Below, piece after piece: positions 14,006 through 19,233 of a stretch of 64,000 nt of DNA (position 1 is its first letter; each line of letters begins with the position of its first letter). Location of the stretch: positions 3,456,001 to 3,520,000 of the forward strand of contig OZ253442.1 of the NCBI GenBank assembly GCA_965261085.1, written 5' to 3'. Source of the DNA: a bacterium (lineage in GTDB: Bacteria; UBA8248). The notes under the pieces are model-generated. The model did not search any database and was not told the DNA's origin. It worked only from the letters and a program-made list of their open reading frames with translations. The position numbers and the translations under genes were made by a program.

Positions 14006-14654
14006 ATTCTCTTTCATTAAGTCATGAACAAAATGTAATTTCTGGAGATATGTCAGCCCAAGAGAAACGCCCGGCTGATACCTCAACCGGGCGTCAAATT
14101 ATCATTCCCCATTGAGCGTTAGTATTCAGCAGGAGCATAACCCCCTTCGCCGTCACTTAAGAAGGAGAAATCATCAATTACACTCTTATCAGGCACATCA
14201 TAATTCACATCCGTTGGCAGCACGTCTCCAGACTCTGCAAAAAACTCGTGGTCCAAGACAACAACACTATCTGTTAGCTCGATCATTTCATCCTCATTTT
14301 ATAGGCTGTTCGATACGAATCTTCTCGGACATGGTTACAGGCGACATCACAAAGGCGGGGAGTATACTCAAATCATTTAAAAAAGCAACACTTTTTTCCC
14401 ATAAACTCTTATTTTTCAAGTGCTAAAATGTATTCACTCAAAGCGATGCTTGTCATTGTCTTTGGTGACATTTGGGGGCGAAATATTTTAATAAGACCAA
14501 AATAGAAAACTGGTGAAATGCAGTTCGTATACCTCCGTCTTGTTTAACACGTAGTATGATGCTAGTGAATACGCGCACAAATAATAGTTGCCCACAAAAG
14601 TGAGAACTTACTCGATAAATGTTTTAGGCGAAAAGGCTTGCGCAACCAAAATGT

Positions 14655-15320
14655 CTAAGCCAAATCCTTTGCTTGGAATTCGATTCGTCCTCCCGGCGGT
14701 TCCACCACCAAATGAAGCGCTTCAGCCAGCCTCCCTGAGAGATGCCACATACCACAAATAAAGGTGAGTTCCACGATCTGACGATTAGAGAAATATTTCT
14801 TCATCTCACTGAATGCGAAGTCGTTGTTCTTGGCCGTGAATTTCGACACTTCATCCGCCCACCGGATAACAGCTTTTTCCTTATCATCGAACAAATCACT
14901 GTCTTTCCAATCATCGCTTTCCAGCAGATTGATTTGATCCTGGCTAAGACCCAGAGCTCGACCGAGCTCCACATTGTGCCCAATTCAGTTGTTACATTCA
15001 GTCAATATGGCCGTTTTGACGATGACGAGCTCCATGAGCCGAATGTAATCGGATTCCGTCTTCAATCGATTCGTCCGGAGCTTTTGGTCGAGCAACATCC
15101 ATCCTTCGACGGTGGGAGGCGAATTTCCCAGAAGCTGCAAAAAGCGCGGGACGGTACCCCACATCCGCTTCGACCAGTCAAAGAGTGGAGTGAGTTCGTC
15201 CTTGAGTTCGTCAGGAATATTATCAGGATCGACAAAAGGCAATCTTGGCAACGGACAGGCCATCATCTCCTCGGTCACGCCCAGACTATCCGGTAAACTC
15301 GTAGCTTCGTCCACAGACAT
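14655..15320 (-). CDS. AhpD/carboxymuconolactone decarboxylase-family protein with in-frame UGA; probable selenoprotein (CxxU)
   Basis: ORFs 14985-15320 and 14655-14972 are in the same frame, separated by TGA (14985-14987), reading ELVIVKTAILTE-C-N-N-[UGA]-I-G-H. SECIS-like hairpin at 14954-14969. Confidence 0.8.
14954..14969 (-). promoter_or_regulatory. Putative bacterial SECIS element
   Basis: mRNA GAGCUC-GGUC-GAGCUC hairpin with a G-leading apical loop that begins after a 21-nt spacer following the UGA. Confidence 0.6.
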
Positions 15321-15346
15321 TGGATTCTCCTTGAAAAAAGTGTGGT

Positions 15347-17596
15347 TTATACACCGCTCGTGGCCAATGCCTCCCGAATATGATGCGGGCCGACGGGCAA
15401 TGAAAAGACGGGTATTCCAATAGCGTCTTGTATGGCGTTCACTATCGCCGCTGCAGTCGCCACAATGGGCGGTTCACCCACTCCCCGCATCCCATAGGGT
15501 GTGCCCTCGGCCGGATTGTCATACAACACAGCATTCAGTTCGGGCATATCCATACTGGTAGGGATCAAATATTCATGGAAGGTATCACCGTGCAAATTTC
15601 CATCCGGGCGCCTTGGTTGCTCTTCCATAAGGGCCAATCCGAGGCCTTGTATCATGGCACCTTCAATTTGCCCCACCACAGACAATGGATTTATGGCAAA
15701 TCCAACATCCTGCACACATGTGAGTCGCAAAACCCTGATTTCTCCGAGTTCGGGGTTTACAGCCACATCCGCTATCTGTCCGGTATGTATCGGACATGGG
15801 GGCGGTTTCGCGCTTTCACCTTGCCCAATTAAAAACCCCTGAATTTCAGGCGCCGCCTTGGCCACCTGCGCAAGTGTCAGGGCACGATCAGGCGCCGAAC
15901 CCACCTTGACTTGGCCATCTTCCAAAACCAGGTCGTCTGCAGCGGCTTCTAGTTTTATGCTCGCCACTTTCAAAATTTTGTCTCGCAAATCGCGCGCAGC
16001 ACTCAAGGTTGCCATCCCCACTGCTCGTGTCGCCTTACTACCCGACGCCGCGGATGATTCAGGAACCGAATCCGTATCTCCGTTCGAGTAACGCACCTCA
16101 TCCAAACTTACACCCAGTTCCTCCGCTGCCAGTTGGCATATCGAAGTACTCATCCCTGTGAGATTCACCGTTCCCGCTACCACTTGTACGGTGCCATCTT
16201 GATTCAGACGGACCGTGCAACTAGATGCCTCTCCCGGCCCCGGCCAATACCCGCAAGCAATGCCACGGCCGAGTTTCCAGCCATCTCCCTGAACCTCTCC
16301 GTTAGCCTCAATCTTCTCTCCCCACTTCCCTTCTACGGCTGTTGAGTCAAGTACACTACGCATGGATGAGTTTTGCTCCTTTCCAGCCAGTGTTTCATCT
16401 CCGGGCTGAAGCGAATTAATTCGCCTTATCTCGAGTGGATCAATCCCCATCTCGCGCGCAATGATGTCCATCTGCACTTCGGTGGCAAAGTGGTATTGAG
16501 GCCCGCTAGGAGCACGCACGGGACCGCAAACAGGGCCATTGGTATACACCGTACACGCGCGAATCCTGACGTTGGGAATGCGATAAGAAGATGAGCCCAT
16601 CAGCATCTTGCTGCTGCACTGGAAAGGCGCGCCTCGGCCATAGGCTCCATGATCCATCGTGACATCAAGCTCCCGGGCTACAAACGTACCATCATTCTTT
16701 ACCGCTGTGCGTATCTTGATGAAATGGGGGTGTCTCGGATTCACGCCAATATGATCTTCTTCGCGGGTCATCTCCATCCGCACTGCCTGGTCTGTTTTCA
16801 AGGCTAATAAAGCGCCTATGTGCTCATACGTACTCTTCAGTTTTGCGCCAAACCCGCCGCCGATTTCAGTAGGAATGACACGAACCTGCGTTGCCGGAAG
16901 CCCAAGCGCCTCAGCCACGTCCGCGCGAATGGCCCACGCATCCTGCGTGGTTGTCCAAATAGTGACTTTCCCGTCGGCGCCAGCCTCGGCAGTGCATGCG
17001 TGAGGCTCAATATAGCCGGCATGTACGAATGGCGTGGAAAAAGTATGCTCAAAAATACGATCCGCCTCTTTGTATCCGGCGTCGACATCTCCCATTTCTT
17101 TTTCAAAACGGGCGATGATATTTTTGTCCGCATTCGGGCCAAGTCCCAAATCTTGCCAATCTTCATGAACGGCAAGCCCCTTGCCAGCCCGGCTATCTAA
17201 GCCGTTTACTACCGGTTCTAAAACTTCATATTCCACGCGAATCAATTCGATGGCCGCTAGGGCGGCATCCATGTTCTCGGCGGCCACGGCAGCCACTGGC
17301 TCTCCGCCATACCGAACATAACCGTCTTGCGCAAACCAACTCTGATCTTTGATATTGGCGCCAAACCGAATGCGGGGAGCTTCATCTCGCGTCACGACCG
17401 CACGGACGCCGAGTATCTTGCGCGCCTCGGTCGCATCCACGCTTTTCACTTTCGCGTACGGGTGCGGGCTGCCCAAGACCAACCCGACAAGTGTCCGACT
17501 CGACGGGACATCAGCCGCAAATTTCGCACTTCCAGCTACTTTGTCCGGGGCATCGATTCGGGTGAAGCCCATGCCCGCCACTTTATAGTTTGTCAT
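15347..17596 (-). CDS. Xanthine dehydrogenase/CoxL-family molybdopterin-binding subunit
   Basis: RIDAPDKVAG, SPHPYAK, VHAGYIEPH, IGGGFGAK, GQIEGAMIQGLG and GMRGVGEPP. Confidence 0.93.
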   Translation of the reverse strand: MTNYKVAGMGFTRIDAPDKVAGSAKFAADVPSSRTLVGLVLGSPHPYAKVKSVDATEARKILGVRAVVTRDEAPRIRFGANIKDQSWFAQDGYVRYGGEPVAAVAAENMDAALAAIELIRVEYEVLEPVVNGLDSRAGKGLAVHEDWQDLGLGPNADKNIIARFEKEMGDVDAGYKEADRIFEHTFSTPFVHAGYIEPHACTAEAGADGKVTIWTTTQDAWAIRADVAEALGLPATQVRVIPTEIGGGFGAKLKSTYEHIGALLALKTDQAVRMEMTREEDHIGVNPRHPHFIKIRTAVKNDGTFVARELDVTMDHGAYGRGAPFQCSSKMLMGSSSYRIPNVRIRACTVYTNGPVCGPVRAPSGPQYHFATEVQMDIIAREMGIDPLEIRRINSLQPGDETLAGKEQNSSMRSVLDSTAVEGKWGEKIEANGEVQGDGWKLGRGIACGYWPGPGEASSCTVRLNQDGTVQVVAGTVNLTGMSTSICQLAAEELGVSLDEVRYSNGDTDSVPESSAASGSKATRAVGMATLSAARDLRDKILKVASIKLEAAADDLVLEDGQVKVGSAPDRALTLAQVAKAAPEIQGFLIGQGESAKPPPCPIHTGQIADVAVNPELGEIRVLRLTCVQDVGFAINPLSVVGQIEGAMIQGLGLALMEEQPRRPDGNLHGDTFHEYLIPTSMDMPELNAVLYDNPAEGTPYGMRGVGEPPIVATAAAIVNAIQDAIGIPVFSLPVGPHHIREALATSGV

Positions 17597-17701
17597 TTTC
17601 ACCTCGGAGAAATATATGACTTATACCGTTGAATTTCTTATACCATTCGACAATCATTCAGTGCTTTGGCCACGCAACGCATAAATTTATCTCCCCTCCA
17701 T

Positions 17702-18108: not shown

Positions 18109-19233
18109 TTATGCTCCAGGAGTCAGATTCACCAACAAAGCGCCATCTTTTCGGGCCACAAACGTATCGTGCGCTTCTTGATATTCCTTAAGGGGAAACC
18201 GATGGGTATTGTACGGGTCCACCTTCATTCTCCCGGCATCAATGAGCGATAAAACCTCATCACCGCAATTGGGATTCGCTCGAACACCAAAAACATCCAT
18301 CTCCTCAAGCACAACGCGTTTCCATGCCAAATCAGGAATGTTATCCGGTATACCCGTGATGGCGACACGCGCACCTTTGCCGCCGCAATCCACACTCCAC
18401 TTAAAGCTATCCGTAGCTCCCGCCGTCTCCAGCACCACGTTGGCTTTTCTTCCGCCAGTCATCTCGTCTATACGTTCCGGCACACCACCCTCTCGGTAAC
18501 TGACAACTTCAGCGCCCTGTTCTCCCAGAATATCGAGCCTCCTGCCACCACCCACAACAATCACGCGTCCTGCGCCCATCGCCTTGACTTATTCATATGC
18601 AAAAACACCAATGGGTCCCGAACCCAATATCACGACCGTATCGCCAGGGTTGATGCCTGCGCGCTTCGCCGTCCAGAGATCACAAGCAGCCGGGTCCACG
18701 GCCGACCCATACTCGAAAGACATACCCTCAGGCATCTTGTGCAAAACCCGTATATTGTTGGTCACATACTCCGCATATGAGCCTTGCGTAATATGCCCAT
18801 ACTGTCTGTGGCCAGTGTCTATCTTTCCATAATTATAGCAGAGGTTATAGCGACCAATGAGACACATGCGGCAAGCGCCGCACCCTGCGTGGCTCGTACC
18901 CGCGACGGCATCACCCATATCGAGCCCGAACCCTTCTGTCATCGGGCCCATCGCCACGATTCTGCCGGCCCACTCGTGCCCTAAGATGGCCGGGAGTTTA
19001 GGCGGCCAGTTGGGGAGGTGACCGCCTTTGATGATTTCGATGTCCGTACCACAAATCGTGGTGCACTCTACTTTGACAAGCACCTCTCCGATATTCGGCT
19101 CCGGAACAGGAACGGATTGAATTTCAAGCCTTTCGGGCGCAGTCATTACAACCGCTTCCATCTTGTCTCCTACCTCTTCGCCATAACGCACATCGAACGC
19201 TGAGGACATAAAATCCAATTCTCCTTCATTCAT
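18109..19233 (-). pseudogene. Zn-dependent alcohol/polyol dehydrogenase (MDR family) interrupted by an in-frame TAA
   Basis: ICGTD, GHEWAG, CGACRMC..C and GSGPIG motifs. Reads ...FAYE-TAA(18589-18591)-VKAMGAGRVIVV in one frame. Confidence 0.8.

Follow-up and report, generated by a model that had tools for sequence, protein, structure and literature searches.

A split reading frame in a UBA8248 genome predicted to encode an AhpD-like selenoprotein with a C-x-x-U motif

The locus and its reading frame

We analysed a stretch of 64,000 nucleotides (the window) from a bacterium of the GTDB lineage UBA8248 (GenBank assembly GCA_965261085.1, contig OZ253442.1, positions 3,456,001 to 3,520,000), and in particular a gene on its minus strand, at 15320..14655, that is predicted to encode a selenoprotein of the AhpD/CMD superfamily. 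The gene occupies a single frame of 221 codons that is followed by a TAG stop and contains one in-frame TGA, which we translated as selenocysteine (Sec, U). The listing of open reading frames (ORFs) splits it into 15320..14985 (111 amino acids, aa) and 14972..14655 (105 aa), which are in the same frame with the TGA between them. The residues around this codon are K-T-A-I-L-T-E-C109-N-N-U112-I-G-H115-N-V-E-L-G-R. The original prediction, which had joined the two ORFs into one frame broken by a single TGA and giving C-N-N-[UGA]-I-G-H, was exact, and the strand, which it had not given, is the minus strand. The perfect GAGCUC(GGUC)GAGCUC hairpin that it had placed within the coding sequence is real as well, and extends to an 8-bp stem. 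The features of the gene, with the grounds for each in parentheses, are the following.

15327..15332, minus strand: Shine-Dalgarno-like AAGGAG, 6 nt upstream of the ATG at 15320 (reading of the sequence)
14655..15320, minus strand: predicted AhpD-like selenoprotein gene, complete, 221 codons plus TAG stop (single frame, co-linear homologues, AlphaFold2 model and fold match)
14994..14996, minus strand: codon of Cys109, the partner of U112 in C-x-x-U (translation)
14985..14987, minus strand: predicted Sec codon UGA, codon 112 (Cys in aligned homologues; TGA in orthologues and paralogues)
14976..14978, minus strand: codon of His115 in U-x-x-H-N (H115 and N116 nearly invariant in alignment A1 and present in 10 of 10 paralogues)
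14952..14971, minus strand: SECIS-like hairpin with an 8-bp stem (14971..14964 with 14959..14952) and a GGUC loop (14963..14960) (ViennaRNA fold, covariation)
14657..14655, minus strand: TAG stop (translation)

A search of 5.8 billion proteins returned 26 relatives, 19 of which were aligned with the query in alignment A1; P0010, P0011 and the short fragments P0021-25 were left out. The full-length homologues in A1 (212-253 aa) are 49-60% identical and co-linear from the first to the last residue, and both halves of the gene are equally conserved. Neither half-ORF matched a family in a Pfam search; the joined protein matched Pfam CMD (PF02627) across the junction, at residues 95-157, and the homologues P0016 and P0017 carry PF02627 too. 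The AlphaFold2 (AF2) model of the joined chain, based on alignment A1, is all-helical and was obtained with high scores (pLDDT 94.1, pTM 0.90). All 33 Foldseek matches listed with E up to 0.001 are AhpD/CMD-type chains, among them 2gmy, 2prr, 6k40, the Bmp8 chain 6ohi, 2oyo and 3c1l. The same set was found when the A1 profile was compared with the sequences in the PDB (2gmy with E 8.5e-20; also 2o4d, 7xw1 and 6k40), and C109-x-x-U112 aligns with the CxxC of 2gmy, 2ijc and 2oyo. With its profile relationship, its modelled all-helical fold and its redox pair plus His, the joined protein is thus assigned to the AhpD/CMD superfamily.

The UGA column, the hairpin and predicted selenocysteine decoding

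Cysteine, and not tryptophan, occupies the column of U112 in 20 of the 20 rows of A1, including all 19 homologues. The column of Cys109 is Ser in 14 of the 19 Cys-form homologues, and Cys in all 10 Sec paralogues. Three of the public proteins left out of A1 (P0022-P0024) stop exactly at ...C-N-N, in agreement with the earlier claim that standard pipelines split such genes; these three are Sec forms cut short by gene callers. Another one, P0021, has W at the Sec position. In P0025 a different frame takes over beyond the first 55 residues or so.

Sixty-one genomes, that of the window and those of 60 relatives, were searched in six frames, and 46 of them gave matches. In all listed rows that include residue 112 a TGA is present in frame, and one row has two; the rows without TGA are just two C-terminal fragments, both from one genome (G016). 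Orthologues were then considered with one genome per species, and a motif search found the site in 38 of 39 loci (L025-L063); L059 was missed, and several genomes are present twice. TGA together with the same hairpin was found in 37 of the 38 orthologue loci, down to 59% protein identity. The sole TGC form, L062, comes from a record titled Anaerolineales, reads S-I-N-C-T-G-H and has no such hairpin. The record titles of the orthologues are Nitrospinota/Nitrospinaceae at 87-94% identity, Tectomicrobia at 71%, and Acidimicrobiia, Alphaproteobacteria/Rhodospirillaceae, Sulfotelmatobacter and Chthoniobacterales at 59-69%. In one relative (L061 and G016:C38) the orthologue switches to a different frame after residue 156, and its C-terminal 65-68 residues occur again, as an additional partial copy, some 1.2-1.4 kb away; the gene is probably undergoing decay or rearrangement there.

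With tblastn, ten copies of C-x-x-TGA-x-x-H-N, 25-62% identical to the studied copy, and one distant Cys paralogue were detected in the window's genome, which is a single contig of 4.27 Mb. In 10 of the 10 copies a hairpin follows, with a 4-nt loop that begins exactly 21 nt past the UGA. The loop is GGUC nine times and GGCC once, and the stems differ.

In the studied gene the hairpin lies within the coding sequence, in the codons for V-E-L-G-R-A-L, and spans the region 13-33 nt downstream of the UGA. Its perfect core GAGCUC/GGUC/GAGCUC (14969..14954) begins 16 nt past the UGA, the GGUC loop begins 21 nt after it, and the full 8-bp stem includes two G-U pairs. Folded alone, the 20 nt have a calculated energy of -10.7 kcal/mol, and a 30-nt stretch reaches -12.4. 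The published model for the bacterial selenocysteine insertion sequence (bSECIS), as given in a 2026 review, has a loop of 3-9 nt, an upper stem of 4-16 bp, a G in the first two loop positions, a UGA-to-loop spacing of 16-37 nt and a minimum free energy of at most -7.5 kcal/mol (PMC13188914). Checked by hand against that model, the hairpin falls within every range, with its 4-nt GGUC loop, 8-bp stem, 21 nt spacing and -10.7 kcal/mol.

The machinery for Sec is encoded in the same genome. All four genes that the original prediction had named, selA, selB, selC and selD, scored above curated cut-offs: the tRNA-Sec gene selC with 75.9 bits against a gathering score of 47 (ARAGORN calls it tRNA-SeC(tca)), SelB with 384 bits against 242 over the full-length profile, SelA with 579 bits against 268, and SelD with 336 bits against 125. 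The selD gene (L019, G000 C1:3459-4421, minus strand) has one in-frame TGA, which indicates that SelD would itself be a selenoprotein. The selA (561 aa) and selB (652 aa) genes are open frames without TGA, which argues that TGA is not a general sense codon in this genome.

We conclude that the locus very probably contains one gene for a 221-residue selenoprotein of the AhpD/CMD superfamily, with UGA 112 as a Sec codon in a redox site. The Sec-containing redox protein of 221 aa that the original prediction had put forward, with a hairpin just 3' of the UGA and a G at the start of its loop, is supported by the Cys/Sec pairing, by a hairpin that satisfies the bSECIS constraints and whose stem covaries, by the Sec machinery and by the predicted fold. 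None of the conditions that it had named as refuting was found: the Sec machinery is present, the homologues have Cys in the column of U112, and contigs of other runs show no other letter at the TGA. During translation, the UGA at codon 112 would be read as selenocysteine, the hairpin 13-33 nt downstream serving as a bacterial SECIS. This element would be bound by SelB carrying Sec-tRNA(Sec), which SelA would make from selenophosphate supplied by SelD. The predicted active site, C109-x-x-U112-x-x-H115, would lie at the start of a helix in an all-helical AhpD-like protein, with U112 as the putative nucleophile and C109 resolving via a selenenyl-sulfide. The role of U112 is plausible because the U column is invariant and its partner is Ser in 14 of the 19 Cys-form homologues; in the AhpD of Mycobacterium tuberculosis, it is reportedly the second Cys that acts as the nucleophile. 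From this C109/U112 chemistry the protein would be a selenol/thiol oxidoreductase that reduces peroxides or disulfides. Sec insertion, the identity of the nucleophile and the chemistry are inferred.

Several points weigh against this reading. Perfect stems of at least 6 bp in bSECIS geometry follow 2759 of 127,840 arbitrary window positions (2.2%), and stems of the same type follow 50 of the 2059 TGA triplets of the window (2.4%). In addition, the fold of the 66-nt stretch has a z-score of only -1.0 relative to shuffles. Taken alone, the hairpin is thus only weakly beyond chance, and it is raised above chance because it is conserved with covariation in paralogues and orthologues. In alignment A3, an ungapped set of 18 sequences (the ten paralogues of this genome and eight orthologues), 87.5% of the cells of the 8-bp stem are paired, compared to 26-58% when the partner is slid by 1-3 columns. 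Six of the eight pairs show changes on both sides, as for instance the closing pair, which goes from C-G to U-A in five sequences. The covariation score is 0.55 against 0.27 ± 0.04 for shuffles, and 0 of 500 shuffles reach 0.55, although such shuffle tests are inflated since the A3 sequences are related. Moreover, part of the sequence conservation of loop and stem is at the protein level, since both fall on conserved codons (L-G-R/Q). The loop itself consists of a Gly codon plus the first base of an Arg or Gln codon. All 18 Sec forms of A3 keep this Gly, but 11 of the 17 close Cys forms have Ala instead. This points to the RNA, rather than the protein, as what preserves the Gly in the Sec forms.

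Family scores and motif spacing are to be set on the same side. The single-sequence Pfam CMD score is 22.2 bits, 0.8 below the gathering cut-off of 23; TIGR01926 ('peroxidase-related enzyme') gave 34.1 against 81.8 bits, though the match covers positions 2-177 of the 178 in the profile; and NF053654, the best NCBIfam match, gave 46.8 against 310 bits. The His follows at +3 (U-x-x-H), compared to +4 (C-x-x-x-H) in solved AhpD-like chains. Searches with NF041238 gave no match to the studied gene at E up to 0.01. The gene is a member of a divergent U-x-x-H-N subgroup of about 220 aa that, by its profile scores, lies below every curated cut-off tested. Finally, the contigs from RNA libraries referred to below are no proof of transcription.

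Genomic context, alternative readings and paralogues

Outside the gene itself, the following features bear on its context and on its family.

15347..17602, minus strand: molybdenum-hydroxylase large subunit, 751 aa, of the xanthine dehydrogenase/aldehyde oxidase family, 26 nt upstream of the studied gene (Pfam Ald_Xan_dh_C, MoCoBD_1 and MoCoBD_2)
G000 C1, TGA first bases 2392660(-), 2816790(-), 45199(-), 1237162(+), 4208593(+), 3985070(+), 1024772(-), 788367(-) and 2933007(+): nine further paralogues, loci L133-L141 (tblastn)
L143:77-676, G000 C1 about 3375135, minus strand: canonical AhpD-like Sec protein with C-Y-G-U-T-M-N-H (TIGR01926, 112.7 against 81.8 bits)
L142:34-642, G000 C1 about 2113459, minus strand: selenoprotein of the UGSC family (NF041046, 140.7 against 125 bits)

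Farther upstream of the molybdenum-hydroxylase gene are queF and a broken zinc-dependent alcohol dehydrogenase (Zn-ADH) gene; downstream of the studied gene are a 309-aa ORF without assignment and, on the opposite strand, a gene for a class II ribonucleotide reductase. The Mo-hydroxylase gene adjoins the selenoprotein gene in 29 of the 38 related loci, namely all those of the same genus plus L053, L059 and L061, and in the same-genus loci the selenoprotein gene always lies 26 nt downstream of it. Eight loci of other lineages (L052, L054-58, L060 and L062) have no MoCoBD neighbour, and at L063 the upstream DNA is too short to judge adjacency. In the scanned orthologue loci of other lineages, the neighbours matched by Pfam are unrelated, none being matched in L052. 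In this orthologue group the gene may therefore have a specific link with the Mo enzyme. Because the neighbourhoods of paralogues and of other-phylum orthologues have no gene family in common, the context gives no general function.

Genes for an aldehyde:ferredoxin oxidoreductase (AFOR_N/AFOR_C) were seen at two loci, one beside the sole Cys-form orthologue (L062:942-2861, minus strand) and one about 3 kb from a Sec paralogue (L134:8057-9931, plus strand). Taken with the Mo hydroxylase, they point to a link, loose and unproven, with pterin-dependent aldehyde oxidoreductases.

These observations bear on an alternative that concerns the role of a genuine selenoprotein, namely that it is a dedicated partner of the adjacent molybdenum hydroxylase, or a Bmp8-like reductive dehalogenase, and not a peroxide or disulfide reductase. 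We regard this as unlikely. It would account for the same-strand adjacency at 26 nt to a MoCoBD gene in 29 of 38 loci, including one with a Tectomicrobia title (L053) where the MoCoBD protein is 73% identical, and L059. It would also fit the Bmp8 debrominase among the sequence and fold matches (6ohi: profile E 5e-16, TMq 0.62) and the tungsten/molybdenum aldehyde oxidoreductases near the Cys form and near one paralogue. Eight loci of other lineages, however, have no MoCoBD neighbour, the neighbours matched by Pfam are unrelated, as are the contexts of the nine paralogues, and Bmp8 is just 14-16% identical in structural alignment.

A bolder version, which we consider improbable, can be formulated for the family as a whole. 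U-x-x-H-N proteins would be a distinct AhpD-like Sec clade, unreached at cut-off by the curated models tested, with a fixed SECIS design (GGUC tetraloop, 21 nt, L-G-R/Q codons), spread between phyla and present in about ten copies per genome in this lineage. The studied copy would be no general peroxidase but a dedicated selenol redox partner of the upstream Mo hydroxylase, for example maintaining the active site of that enzyme or a reactive product in the reduced state. The remaining copies would act as selenol reductases with specialised substrates, and some of them may be dehalogenases like Bmp8.

Far less probable is a reading of the UGA as Trp, Gly or Cys, through an alternative code or near-cognate read-through, instead of as Sec. 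Bacteria with genetic codes 4 and 25 exist, and the public gene call P0021 has its W precisely at the UGA column. Against such a reading, the selA and selB genes lack TGA, and the genome encodes the full Sec machinery along with the conserved hairpin. Moreover, the Trp, Gly and remaining Cys residues of the gene use ordinary codons, TGA being confined to the catalytic Cys column.

We give still less weight to the idea that the TGA is a true stop, the locus being a pseudogene or two small genes, with a product of 111 aa and perhaps a second one of 105 aa that starts at the GTG at 14972. Standard ORF calling does give two ORFs, and the public gene calls P0022-24 stop at ...C-N-N; yet the TGA is found at the same codon in 37 of the 38 orthologue loci and in the ten paralogues, the two halves are conserved to the same degree, neither alone matches a family, and the junction falls within the CMD domain as well as within the AF2 model, which is confident and has a single domain.

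An assembly or sequencing error that hides a true TGC or TGT codon, in favour of which no point was found, is next to negligible, because the same TGA is present in many independent assemblies and stands unchanged in gene-spanning contigs of the DNA runs X2 and X5, which come from other studies, and in a bridging contig of the RNA-library run X16 (record 5, 14600-15204). No other letter was seen at 14985-14987 in the contigs of the four runs compared. In the RNA-library run X15 no single contig had 31 letters on both sides of the TGA, which leaves X16 as the sole bridging RNA library. The label 'sponge metagenome' is attached to some RNA runs in which part of the stretch occurs (X19, share 0.43); we draw no conclusion about habitat from it.

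With the AhpD-like selenoprotein as the preferred reading, we turn to its relatives in the same genome. None of the nine paralogues reached the curated cut-offs of TIGR01926, NF053654 or NF041238, the NF053654 scores being 39.7-75.6 bits, and three of the nine pass the generic AhpD core model TIGR00778. Their neighbourhoods are unrelated to each other and contain no common gene family. The closest paralogue (61% identical; L133, G000 C1:2387660-2397660) lies beside two DNA methyltransferases, a BglII-type endonuclease and two phage-type integrases. This locus is likely a mobile island, which fits the spread of the family across phyla. The paralogue at 2933007 looks truncated (155 aa).

With the canonical AhpD-like protein at L143 the genome also encodes a member of a second AhpD-type Sec family, distinct from the first. 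The motif G-D/G-U-G-S/G-C-T was found at seven places in a crude scan, L142 being the only one confirmed as belonging to the UGSC family. The same kind of scan gave a candidate D-C-F-Y-U-T-T-S-H at G000 C1:2333815 (plus strand), reminiscent of the motif after which NF041238 (AhpD_rel_CFYUT) is named. The crude genome-wide scan, which combined TGA-joined ORFs, a nearby Cys and a hairpin, produced 311 candidates, mostly off-frame noise, and is unusable as a count of selenoproteins. Two candidates within the window, with TGA at about 29945 and about 39134 (plus strand), were unmatched in Pfam and appear to be non-coding frames. The split Zn-ADH gene (ADH_N plus ADH_zinc_N, 18109-19233, minus strand) was ruled out as a second selenoprotein, its break being a TAA (18589-18591) in the context ...F-A-Y-E-*-V-K-A-M-G...; this break is a pseudogene or assembly error.

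Significance and comparison with known systems

Already in print are the AhpD-like selenoprotein family (since 2005), the mechanism of decoding and the finding that similarly labelled metagenome-assembled genomes (MAGs) are rich in selenoproteins. The Sargasso Sea survey of that year described 27 sequences of AhpD-like CxxU selenoproteins, under COG2128 and with a SECIS figure (PMC1088965). The 2008 report on the Global Ocean Sampling data places AhpD-like proteins among the most abundant selenoprotein families, with 299 sequences of 'AhpD-like 1' (COG2128, CxxU) and 70 of 'AhpD-like 2' (pfam02627, CxxU) (PMC2398784). The 2026 review lists AhpD-like selenoproteins under TIGR01926, with PF02627 for the CMD-like form (PMC13188914). 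The description of BSepDB gives 48-54 selenoprotein genes for MAGs titled Nitrospinota, Nitrospinaceae or Nitrospinae (GTDB UBA8248), which puts these among the richest bacteria (PMC13326102). The labels of the closest relatives of the window's genome match this selenoprotein-rich group. Full-text searches of the literature on sponge-symbiont selenoproteins and on selenocysteine in UBA8248 yielded nothing specific to the U-x-x-H-N subgroup.

The gene opens no new question. What it adds for biology is a well-supported divergent subgroup of a known selenoprotein family. For annotation, ordinary gene callers split or truncate the studied gene and its nine paralogues, and as a consequence the selenoproteome of this lineage would be undercounted by tools that are not Sec-aware. 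The gene also offers a clean natural experiment, in the loop Gly of Sec and Cys forms, for the constraint that a SECIS within coding sequence places on the protein.

Among curated models, NF053654 ('YciW-related (seleno)protein') and NF041238 ('alkylhydroperoxidase-related (seleno)protein') describe Sec proteins of the AhpD superfamily, and the studied gene is a member of neither. It also stays under the cut-offs of both TIGR01926 and the Pfam CMD family, and differs from such forms by its U-x-x-H-N, where L143 of its own genome has U-x-x-x-H.

Among proteins with solved structures, the AhpD-like thiol-dependent dehalogenase Bmp8 (6ohi/6ohj) shares its fold and its length class with the predicted protein (TMq 0.62; E 5e-16 with the profile). 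This is a resemblance only: Bmp8 is 14-16% identical, and a scan of the neighbourhood found no bmp-type gene cluster around the studied gene. The AhpD of Deinococcus radiodurans (6k40) has the same fold over almost the entire length (TMq 0.70 and TMt 0.81 over 190 columns), with its redox pair plus His on a helix; it differs by its 18% identity and by Cys in place of Sec. The same scan found no ahpC partner gene adjoining the studied gene.

The closest match with a structure is PDB 2gmy, the Atu0492 protein of Agrobacterium tumefaciens, which is AhpD-like and has a putative role in antioxidant defence. It is the best match both in sequence (E 2.1e-12 with the single sequence, 8.5e-20 with the profile) and in fold (TMt 0.82, root-mean-square deviation 2.3 over 141 columns), and its CxxC aligns with C109/U112. 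Atu0492 differs in being a Cys form of 153 aa that lacks the N-terminal part of about 85 residues, in its C-A-F-C-V-D-M-H spacing and in its identity of 26%. With the AhpD-like Sec proteins known from marine metagenomes, the predicted protein has in common the superfamily, a C-x-x-U motif with Sec in second place, a SECIS just downstream with a G in its loop, and widespread Cys homologues.

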